A DNA stretch of 64,000 bases, taken from Escherichia coli (lineage in GTDB: Bacteria; Pseudomonadota; Gammaproteobacteria; Enterobacterales; Enterobacteriaceae). Below are positions 50,201 through 53,200 of this stretch, piece by piece (position 1 is the first letter of the stretch; every line of letters starts with the position of its first letter). The stretch is taken from assembly GCF_044324785.1 (NCBI RefSeq), contig NZ_CP172127.1; one strand, 5' to 3'. A program made the position numbers.

Positions 50201-53200
50201 AAACCCGTAATACCTGCACCTATTGTTCCGTAGGCTGTGGGCTGTTGATGTACAGCCTCGGTGACGGAGCAAAAAACGCCAAAGCATCTATCTTCCATAT
50301 CGAAGGCGATCCGGATCACCCGGTCAACCGCGGTGCACTTTGTCCGAAAGGCGCTGGCCTGGTGGATTTCATCCACTCCGAAAGCCGTCTGAAGTTTCCG
50401 GAATACCGTGCGCCAGGTTCTGATAAATGGCAGCAAATCAGTTGGGAAGAGGCGTTTGATCGCATCGCCAAACTGATGAAAGAAGACCGCGATGCTAACT
50501 ACATTGCGCAAAACGCCGAAGGCGTGACTGTTAACCGCTGGCTCTCCACCGGGATGCTGTGTGCTTCCGCGTCGAGTAACGAAACCGGCTATTTAACGCA
50601 AAAATTCTCCCGCGCGCTGGGTATGCTCGCGGTCGACAACCAGGCGCGTGTCTGACACGGACCAACGGTAGCAAGTCTTGCTCCAACATTTGGTCGCGGT
50701 GCGATGACCAACCACTGGGTCGACATCAAGAACGCCAACCTCGTCGTGGTGATGGGCGGTAACGCCGCTGAAGCTCACCCGGTCGGGTTCCGCTGGGCGA
50801 TGGAAGCCAAAATTCACAATGGCGCGAAGCTGATTGTGATCGATCCTCGCTTTACGCGTACGGCTGCGGTGGCTGACTACTATGCCCCTATTCGTTCCGG
50901 TACTGACATTGCTTTCCTGTCAGGCGTATTGCTGTACCTGCTGAACAATGAAAAATTCAACCGCGAATATACCGAAGCCTATACCAACGCCAGCCTTATC
51001 GTGCGTGAGGATTACGGCTTTGAAGATGGCCTGTTCACCGGCTACGACGCGGAAAAACGCAAGTACGATAAATCCTCCTGGACTTACGAACTGGACGAAA
51101 ACGGCTTCGCCAAACGCGATACCACGCTGCAACATCCGCGCTGCGTGTGGAACTTGCTGAAACAGCACGTTTCCCGCTACACGCCAGATGTGGTTGAAAA
51201 CATCTGTGGTACGCCAAAAGACGCGTTCCTGAAAGTCTGCGAATACATCGCCGAAACCAGTGCTCACGATAAAACTGCTTCGTTCCTGTATGCCCTCGGC
51301 TGGACGCAACACTCTGTTGGTGCGCAAAACATTCGTACGATGGCGATGATCCAGTTGCTGCTCGGCAATATGGGGATGGCAGGCGGCGGCGTTAACGCCC
51401 TGCGTGGTCACTCCAATATTCAGGGGCTGACGGACCTGGGGCTACTGTCGCAGAGCCTGCCGGGTTACATGACGCTGCCGAGCGAGAAGCAGACCGATCT
51501 GCAAACCTACCTTACCGCCAACACGCCAAAACCGCTGCTGGAAGGCCAGGTAAACTACTGGGGCAACTACCCGAAATTCTTCGTCTCCATGATGAAGGCC
51601 TTCTTTGGTGATAAAGCGACGGCGGAAAATAGCTGGGGCTTTGACTGGTTGCCGAAGTGGGATAAAGGCTACGACGTCCTGCAATACTTCGAGATGATGA
51701 AAGAAGGCAAGGTCAATGGCTATATCTGCCAGGGCTTTAACCCTGTTGCCTCATTCCCGAACAAAAACAAAGTGATCGGTTGTCTGTCGAAACTGAAGTT
51801 CCTCGTCACCATCGACCCGCTGAACACTGAAACCTCTAACTTCTGGCAGAACCACGGTGAGCTGAACGAAGTTGACTCGTCGAAGATCCAGACCGAAGTG
51901 TTCCGTCTGCCATCGACCTGCTTCGCGGAAGAGAACGGTTCTATCGTTAACTCCGGTCGCTGGTTGCAGTGGCACTGGAAAGGTGCGGACGCCCCGGGGA
52001 TTGCGCTGACAGATGGCGAGATCCTCTCCGGTATCTTCCTGCGCTTGCGCAAGATGTATGCCGAACAGGGTGGCGCAAACCCGGATCAGGTGCTGAACAT
52101 GACCTGGAACTACGCCATTCCGCATGAGCCGAAGTCGGAAGAAGTAGCGATGGAGAGCAACGGTAAGGCGCTGGCCGATATTACCGATCCGGCAACCGGT
52201 GCGGTTATCGTCAAGAAAGGCCAACAACTTAGCTCGTTCGCCCAACTGCGCGATGACGGTACGACCTCCTGTGGCTGCTGGATTTTCGCCGGTAGCTGGA
52301 CGCCAGAAGGTAACCAGATGGCGCGCCGTGATAACGCCGATCCGTCTGGCCTCGGTAACACGCTGGGCTGGGCATGGGCATGGCCGCTTAACCGCCGCAT
52401 TCTGTATAACCGCGCCTCCGCAGATCCGCAGGGTAACCCGTGGGATCCGAAGCGTCAGTTGCTGAAATGGGACGGCACCAAATGGACCGGCTGGGATATT
52501 CCGGACTACAGCGCAGCGCCTCCGGGCAGTGGCGTTGGGCCGTTTATCATGCAGCAGGAAGGCATGGGGCGTCTGTTTGCCCTCGATAAGATGGCGGAAG
52601 GTCCGTTCCCGGAACACTACGAGCCGTTTGAAACGCCGCTGGGAACTAACCCGCTGCATCCAAACGTTATCTCGAACCCGGCTGCACGTATCTTTAAAGA
52701 CGACGCCGAAGCGTTGGGTAAAGCCGATAAGTTCCCGTATGTCGGAACCACCTATCGTCTGACCGAGCACTTCCACTACTGGACCAAACACGCGCTGTTG
52801 AACGCGATTTTGCAACCAGAGCAGTTTGTGGAAATCGGGGAGTCGCTGGCGAATAAACTTGGCATTGCCCAGGGCGATACCGTGAAAGTCTCCTCCAACC
52901 GTGGCTATATCAAAGCCAAAGCGGTGGTGACCAAACGTATTCGCACGCTGAAAGCGAACGGCAAAGATATCGATACCATCGGTATTCCGATTCACTGGGG
53001 CTATGAAGGTGTTGCGAAAAAAGGCTTTATTGCCAATACGTTAACGCCATTCGTTGGTGATGCGAACACGCAGACGCCAGAGTTTAAATCCTTCCTCGTG
53101 AATGTGGAAAAGGTGGATACCCAATAGATTTCAGATTGCAGGGAGCTGGCGACGCCATGAAGACCGGGAGCATAGAAACACTATGTGACCGGGATGAATA

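Follow-up and report, generated by a model that had tools for sequence, protein, structure and literature searches.

The stretch of DNA analysed here, 64,000 nt long and referred to as the window, carries the genes of formate dehydrogenase-O (FDH-O) together with two accessory genes (Table 1). The divergent fdhD, whose product is a sulfurtransferase and chaperone required for formate dehydrogenase maturation, lies upstream of fdoG; fdoH, fdoI and fdhE follow fdoG on the plus strand, opposite to fdhD. The fdoI product scores only 244 bits on the FdnI model versus 453 on the FdoI model, and the gene order (fdhD / fdoGHI / fdhE) is syntenic with K-12; the locus is therefore fdo, not fdn. The fdoH reading frame starts with MAYQSQDI and, in the junction sequences, agrees at the nucleotide level with the start of K-12 fdoH. 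Elsewhere in the window, a 10-kb block shares 99.8% identity with an E. coli chromosome, which assigns the window to E. coli. The selenocysteine genes selA, selB, selC and selD are standard in E. coli; none of the four lies in the 64-kb window, which also lacks any tRNA gene, and since the window is E. coli (99.8% over 10 kb), the genome is assumed to have them.

Table 1. Features of the fdo locus and of the recoding site within fdoG; positions are those of the window.
Feature	Position	Strand	Basis
fdhD, divergent from fdoG	49038..49871	-	TIGR00129, 336 bits; arrangement as in K-12
fdoG (FDH-O alpha subunit), complete CDS	50068..53127	+	1019 codons including Sec196
SECIS element, Rfam SECIS_3 (RF01989)	50650..50708	+	full-length model match, 1-59
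Near-invariant synonymous block, 69 nt	50650..50718	+	from GTC at 50650 to TGG at 50718; 17 Enterobacterales fdoG/fdnG loci
In-frame UGA, selenocysteine codon 196	50653..50655	+	aligns with X196 of 1KQF; TGA in homologues
Apical mini-helix, predicted to bind SelB	50667..50684	+	nt 15-32, the U of UGA being nt 1; MFE fold, covariation
fdoH (FDH-O beta, Fe-S subunit)	53254..54156	+	TIGR01582, 479 bits; 300 aa in public-assembly calls
fdoI (FDH-O gamma, cytochrome b556)	54153..54788	+	NF007924 FdoI equivalog, 453 bits
fdhE (formate dehydrogenase accessory protein)	54785..55714	+	NF002925, 604 bits

Conceptual translation of fdoG meets a single internal stop, the TGA of codon 196, whereas the two remaining forward frames over the same interval contain 40 and 54 stops. 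The first-pass annotation of this DNA had reported two fdoG ORFs in one frame with only a TGA between them, and this description holds: ORF 50068..50655 (195 aa) and ORF 50704..53127 (807 aa) have a common frame, which is already open at the codon directly 3' of the TGA, with no frameshift. Judged by its sequence, the gene is fdoG: the product is identical to K-12 FdoG at 1015 of 1016 aa (the DNA is 98.3% identical) and shares 77% of its residues with K-12 FdnG. The NCBIfam profile TIGR01553 (cutoff 814) matches on both sides of the UGA, with positions 1-194 before it (271 bits) and 196-1009 after it (1278 bits); exactly one profile position coincides with the TGA, and the family profile is continuous across the codon. 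Among solved structures, FdnG (1KQF chain A) is the top match, at 1902 bits. In that alignment, which had been suggested as a check against the FdnG/FdoG selenoproteins, the UGA falls on residue 196 (X, selenocysteine) of the structure, next to H197 and within the conserved ARV-U-HGPTVASLAPTFGRGAMTNHW segment (ARV-U-HGPTVASL). A twin-arginine signal, SRRQFFK, is present at residues 4-10 of the translated product, and the N-terminal 4Fe-4S cysteines (C50-x2-C53-x3-C57 and C92) align with those of 1KQF. The features tested support a predicted Sec-containing, Mo-bisMGD formate dehydrogenase alpha subunit of the FdnG/FdoG type (TIGR01553).

The segment that spans the UGA and the hairpin (50650-50708) matches the Rfam SECIS_3 model with a score of 84.3 bits (gathering score, 63; E = 1e-19), and this is the only SECIS match in the 64-kb window. 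The model was probably built in part from E. coli fdnG and fdoG sequences, so that the match is recognition of a known element rather than independent evidence; a comparative analysis was sought for this reason. The folded hairpin spans approximately positions 50658-50698. In the minimum free energy (MFE) fold of 50653-50700, agcaagtcttgct, the sequence around which a stem-loop had been proposed 3' of the TGA, occupies 50670-50682 and forms an apical stem, AGCAA/UUGCU, with a GUC loop; beneath it lies a GG/CC base with a bulged U, and then a lower stem. The mini-helix comprises the pairs G15-C32, G16-C31, A18-U30, G19-C29, C20-G28, A21-U27 and A22-U26, with U17 (50669) bulged between G16 and A18 and unpaired in the MFE fold, and G23, U24 and C25 (50675-50677) making up the loop. 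It begins 11 nt past the UGA, with G15 at 50667, and closes at C32 (50684). The determinants of an E. coli SECIS are a mini-helix of about 17 nt (nt 15-31) located 11 nt from the UGA, a bulged U17 and the loop nucleotides G23/U24 (PMC8659212), and the fdoG hairpin agrees with them at canonical spacing. By the criteria of sequence and structure, the hairpin after the UGA is thus a canonical bacterial SelB-dependent SECIS, as the first reading of the DNA had suggested.

Folding energy contributes nothing to this assignment. An RNA fold had been proposed as a check on the stem-loop; the hairpin does form in the MFE fold, but its stability does not exceed that of shuffled sequences: the MFE of 50653-50700 is -13.8 kcal/mol, equalled or bettered by 21 of 200 dinucleotide shuffles (z = -1.44), which is not beyond chance. 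A fold of the 131-nt context is no better than its shuffles (z = +0.93). Since neither the 48-nt nor the 131-nt energy is informative, stability is not used as an argument here. The register of the lower stem differs among the MFE fold of the window, the Rfam consensus and RNAalifold, and several of its pairs fail in many sequences; the lower stem is weakly supported, and no claim is made for it.

Covariation, by contrast with energy, singles out the apical stem. K-12 fdnG is identical to fdoG over the 60-nt SECIS segment and so yields no covariation; a cross-phylum sample was used in its place. The structure set consists of 57 sequences, the window and 56 listed loci, that encode the peptide HGPTVA[S/G]LA[P/S][T/S][F/Y]GRG; they represent 29 distinct 48-mers and are proteobacterial. 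Across the 29 distinct sequences, the apical stem (nt 15-16 and 18-22 with 26-32) is paired in 203 of 203 cells, while sliding the 3' partner side by 1-3 columns leaves only 28-63% pairing. Two pairs switch in a compensatory manner: 18-30 alternates between A-U and G-C, with Val GUA changing to GUG as Ala GCU changes to GCC, and 21-27 alternates between A-U and C-G, with Ala GCA changing to GCC as Leu CUU changes to CUG. Both switches take place at synonymous third positions. The observed covariation score and percentage of paired positions are attained by none of 500 shuffles, and U17, G23 and U24 are invariant across all 29 distinct sequences. The RNA hairpin is under purifying and compensatory selection.

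The recoded codon itself was followed in GTDB representatives, one genome per species, with the query GGNGCNATGACNAAYCAYTGG, which encodes GAMTNHW and returned at least 120 loci. The first codon of the query, Gly +15 (50698-50700), is the final one of the folded hairpin and lies 45 nt 3' of the UGA; since every synonymous position is left degenerate, the query constrains neither codon 196 nor the apical mini-helix. Among the matches listed, the homologous codon at the 117 usable sites is TGA in 114 and a Cys codon, TGT or TGC, in three; no other codon occurs, and His directly follows the TGA or TGY at every one of these sites. The sites listed cover Enterobacterales, Pseudomonas, Burkholderiales, Desulfobacterota, Chloroflexota, Bacillota and others. 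The three Cys versions (e.g., that of Shewanella xiamenensis) are unable to form the apical stem at this place and lack the GU loop, and one of the three also lacks a U at position 17. The first-pass annotation had named, as the finding that would speak against recoding, orthologues with a sense codon here and no conserved hairpin; the comparison does not refute recoding, for the pattern found is TGA with the hairpin at 114 of the 117 listed sites and, at the other three, Cys without it. Alternation between Sec and Cys at a single codon is a classic signature of selenoproteins. Within E. coli, the 76 nt at 50640-50715, which include the TGA, have a match of at least 95% identity in 5425 of 5426 complete genomes, a figure for the segment as a whole rather than for the codon itself.

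The TGA of codon 196 is almost certainly read as selenocysteine within an intact fdoG, through the SECIS hairpin downstream of it. In the expected course of events, the fdoG mRNA just 3' of the UGA would fold into the SECIS hairpin, and domain IV of the specialised elongation factor SelB, with its C-terminal winged-helix domains, would bind the apical mini-helix. The SelB-GTP-Sec-tRNA(Sec) complex would then deliver its cargo to the ribosomal A site, where the UGA would be decoded in competition with release factor 2; this mechanism has been described (PMC8124441). The inserted Sec196 would be the residue by which the periplasmic, Tat-exported FdoG binds the molybdenum of its bis-MGD cofactor, as expected from the finding that the catalytic subunits of all three E. 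coli formate dehydrogenases coordinate bis-MGD via selenocysteine (PMC6239281). SelB binding and Sec-tRNA(Sec)-dependent read-through are predicted here from the identity of the element to that of K-12; SelB binding, actual Sec insertion and the Mo-ligand role are likewise expected from what is established for FdhF, FdnG and FdoG in E. coli.

Constraint on the RNA can also be read from synonymous sites. In a test with 17 Enterobacterales loci, divided between an fdoG-like group (aa identity 0.90-0.98) and an fdnG-like group (0.79-0.83), codons for the same amino acid are identical to those of the window in 99.6% of cases over the 15 codons after the UGA, versus 58.6% on average and 77% at most in 194 other 15-codon windows located up to 120 codons to either side. 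The 48-mer of the window recurs unchanged in 20 listed loci (21 sites, one locus having two) from Photorhabdus, Providencia, Citrobacter, Yersinia, E. albertii, Enterobacter and others. The near-invariant block in which these codons lie is common to fdoG and fdnG in several genera and runs past the 3' end of the SECIS hairpin by about 20 nt; it has two exceptions, each in a single locus, GGA to GGG at codon +2 and ACA to TCT at codon +11. Outside Enterobacterales, codons +15 to +20, which are 3' of the hairpin, vary freely, while the hairpin codons stay fixed (ACG in 34 of 34, GTG in 33 of 34, GCA in 30 of 34, CTT in 30 of 34 and GCC in 33 of 34). Because only the hairpin codons are fixed there, constraint on the hairpin is universal and the extra 3' conservation is lineage-specific. 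It is conceivable, if rather unlikely, that the recoding signal of Enterobacterales FdnG and FdoG includes an additional, undescribed 3' determinant, for which candidate roles would be, e.g., positioning of the ribosome or SelB, or binding of a regulator. Strong constraint combined with recurrent gene conversion between fdnG and fdoG is a possible alternative source of the 3' conservation.

The same 3' extension is the one observation that lends some weight to a different reading, in which the UGA is read through without Sec, e.g., by a near-cognate Trp or Cys, and the conserved RNA serves mRNA stability or sRNA binding: the invariant Enterobacterales block continues for about 20 nt beyond the hairpin, an extension that SelB binding to the mini-helix alone would not account for. 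This reading is nevertheless highly improbable. All defining SECIS determinants are present at exactly the canonical spacing, Sec and Cys alternate at codon 196, and a crystal structure shows Sec196 in the paralogue FdnG, which is 77% identical and has an identical SECIS.

Automated annotation tends to divide the locus in two: a 195-aa protein with the Fe-S domain would terminate at the UGA, and translation would start again at ATG 50704 to give a second protein of 807 aa. Four public (metagenome) assemblies whose allele is exactly the present one list two products for the gene, of precisely 195 aa and 807 aa, which bears out the expectation that such annotation errs at this place, and a shortage of selenium or SelB is known to cause termination at UGA. 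Against this stands the nature of the intervening segment: the 16 codons that separate ATG 50704 from the UGA (HGPTVASLAPTFGRGA) are kept as protein in all listed homologues and form part of the active-site segment in 1KQF, the family profile and the structure alignment run through the UGA uninterrupted, and ATG 50704 encodes the internal Met of the conserved GAMTNHW motif. Two independent products can accordingly be given next to no credence, and selenocysteine decoding within one long chain is the reading retained. RefSeq represents the gene as a single CDS of 3051 nt, to which PGAP gives the name fdnG even in the fdo locus. The value of the present reading for annotation is practical: both ORFs are to be merged into one fdoG CDS with Sec at codon 196 and with no pseudogene flag.

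That fdoG is a pseudogene created by a nonsense mutation, with an incidental hairpin downstream, might be argued from the stop codon between two ORFs, the insignificant stability of the hairpin taken alone and the two genes reported by gene callers, yet the chance of it is vanishingly small and a nonsense pseudogene is excluded, because the TGA stands at the same codon in 114 of the 117 listed homologous sites across many phyla, as well as in K-12 fdoG and fdnG, and because the frame is otherwise flawless, its 1019 codons holding no further stop or frameshift and a single amino acid difference from K-12. The E. coli-wide match to the 76 nt around the TGA (at least 95% identity in all complete genomes but one) and a hairpin with compensatory changes and near-total synonymous-site conservation also speak against decay, and the view of the first-pass annotation that the split gene is not a pseudogene stands.

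A selenocysteine codon of this kind is expected biology for FDH-O, as had been anticipated: K-12 fdoG (b3894) is the same gene, has the same Sec196 and SECIS and is identical over the 60 nt spanning the UGA and the hairpin, with fdhD, fdoH, fdoI and fdhE likewise as its neighbours. The two alleles differ in one substitution (K689 here, S in K-12) and in a palindromic repeat at the stop codon that is present only here; both leave the recoding site untouched. The paralogous E. coli fdnG (FDH-N alpha; PDB 1KQF), whose product is 77% identical in amino acid sequence, also has Sec at 196 and an identical 60-nt UGA/SECIS segment but resides at another locus under different, nitrate-induced regulation (PMC6239281). 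The SECIS of E. coli fdhF (FDH-H, Sec140; SECIS_2-like) is the experimentally dissected model. In both fdhF and fdoG, the UGA is followed by CAC GGN CCA NCG GU, the mini-helix has a GG/CC base, and the bulged U17 and the loop nucleotides G23/U24 are at identical distances from the UGA. The fdoG element differs in an extra potential pair, A22-U26, in its loop (GUC versus GGUC in fdhF) and in the sequence of the lower stem, and the SECIS_2 model scores only 28 bits on the fdoG site versus a gathering score of 70. Sec196 of fdoG and its Rfam SECIS_3 element are already known, textbook biology with nothing new in them; biologically, this is a long-established recoding event of formate dehydrogenase-O that raises no new question.

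Other features near fdoG were noted in passing. A match to the FdoG-1 5'UTR thermometer (RF02778) at 49899-50097 scores 32 bits versus a gathering score of 50 and aligns well only over the ribosome-binding site and first codons; it was rejected as evidence for a thermometer. At the 3' end of the gene, the stop codon of fdoG is the exact insertion point of an imperfect palindromic repeat of about 122 nt (53116-53237), which appends Asp-Thr-Gln (DTQ) to the C-terminus of FdoG and widens the fdoG-fdoH spacer from 12 nt in K-12 to 126 nt. The repeat is about 72% identical to dispersed intergenic copies, and it was not found at the fdoG stop site in any of 5426 complete E. coli genomes. A V_AS5 (RF02818) match at 53115-53237, with 28 bits versus 96, falls on this insertion, which is not a member of that family. 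Upstream of fdhD, between yiiG and fdhD, lies a two-gene insert (44583-48726) encoding an HSP90-like ATPase and a TPR protein. PADLOC returned only a weak TmtA match (E = 1e-5) for the two genes, and no defence system was assigned to them; the insert is present in 254 of the 5426 genomes. The palindrome at the fdoG stop and the two-gene insert near fdhD are more unusual than the Sec codon.

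The synonymously invariant block that encloses the SECIS hairpin of fdoG, delineated across fdoG and fdnG loci of Enterobacterales, is broken only by two codon changes, each confined to a single locus, and reaches ~20 nt 3' of the hairpin in this order; in other proteobacteria, the codons 3' of the hairpin vary freely. In K-12, fdoG and its paralogue fdnG are identical over the 60 nt of the UGA/SECIS segment, yet their proteins are 77% identical. Conservation of the 69-nt block could be due to gene conversion or to an extra constraint.

At its stop codon, fdoG carries an inserted imperfect palindrome with inverted arms at 53118-53142 and 53215-53239 and a predicted RNA fold of -52 kcal/mol (z = -8.7). 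The reading frame enters the palindrome for three codons, Asp-Thr-Gln, before reaching TAG, making FdoG 1019 aa long vs. 1016, and the insertion widens the fdoG-fdoH spacer to 126 nt, compared with 12 nt otherwise, a change with possible consequences for translational coupling or for the stability of the mRNA. The palindrome was found at this site in none of the 5426 complete E. coli genomes; an identical allele is present in 22 public contigs. Judged by sequence likeness, the palindrome is a member of a dispersed repeat family because related copies, at ~72% identity, occur between genes in 1920 genomes, in DNA that has no annotation. It is similar to ERIC primer sequences, and we take it to be ERIC/IRU-like.

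Features of the window (whole-stretch coordinates)
Feature	Coordinates	Strand	Remarks
L31 ribosomal-protein leader	7030-7082	-	Rfam
ClpQY (hslVU) promoter element	11694-11751	+	Rfam
ES036/CssrF sRNA	25403-25444	+	Rfam
RafY-like glycoporin, 464 aa	40895-42289	-	PF16966, 514 bits; between rhaD and yiiG
Two-gene insert	44583-48726	-	between yiiG (43333-44388) and fdhD
Synonymously invariant block, 69 nt	50650-50718	+	17 Enterobacterales fdoG/fdnG loci
Imperfect palindrome, ~122 nt	53116-53237	+	insertion precisely at the fdoG stop codon

The two genes inserted upstream of fdhD code for a 611-aa HATPase_c_3/HSP90-like ATPase and a 768-aa TPR-containing protein. Among the 5426 complete E. coli genomes, only 254 carry the insert, with 90-97% identity, and its genes are annotated there as 'ATP-binding protein' and 'hypothetical protein'; PADLOC returned a weak TmtA match and nothing else. 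One possibility is that the insert is an uncharacterised module with an accessory or defence role. Gene content also differs from K-12 in the rhaD-yiiG region: K-12 has frv genes at roughly the position of the RafY-like glycoporin.

Public records name the alpha subunit of the fdo locus inconsistently. In the RefSeq E. coli record NZ_CP071263.1 (2769-5819), NCBI PGAP calls it 'fdnG: formate dehydrogenase-N subunit alpha', as it does in other RefSeq E. coli records, and the adjoining genes are named fdoH and fdoI. This mismatch in naming goes back to the equivalog name of TIGR01553.

An Rfam match to the FdoG-1 5'UTR thermometer (RF02778; 49899-50097, plus strand) does not count as evidence for such an element here: its 32 bits fall below the gathering score of 50, and the alignment is good only where it covers the ribosome-binding site and the opening codons of fdoG. 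The other Rfam elements counted in the 64-kb window, namely the ClpQY promoter element, the L31 leader and the ES036/CssrF sRNA, score above gathering and are all expected in this region of E. coli.
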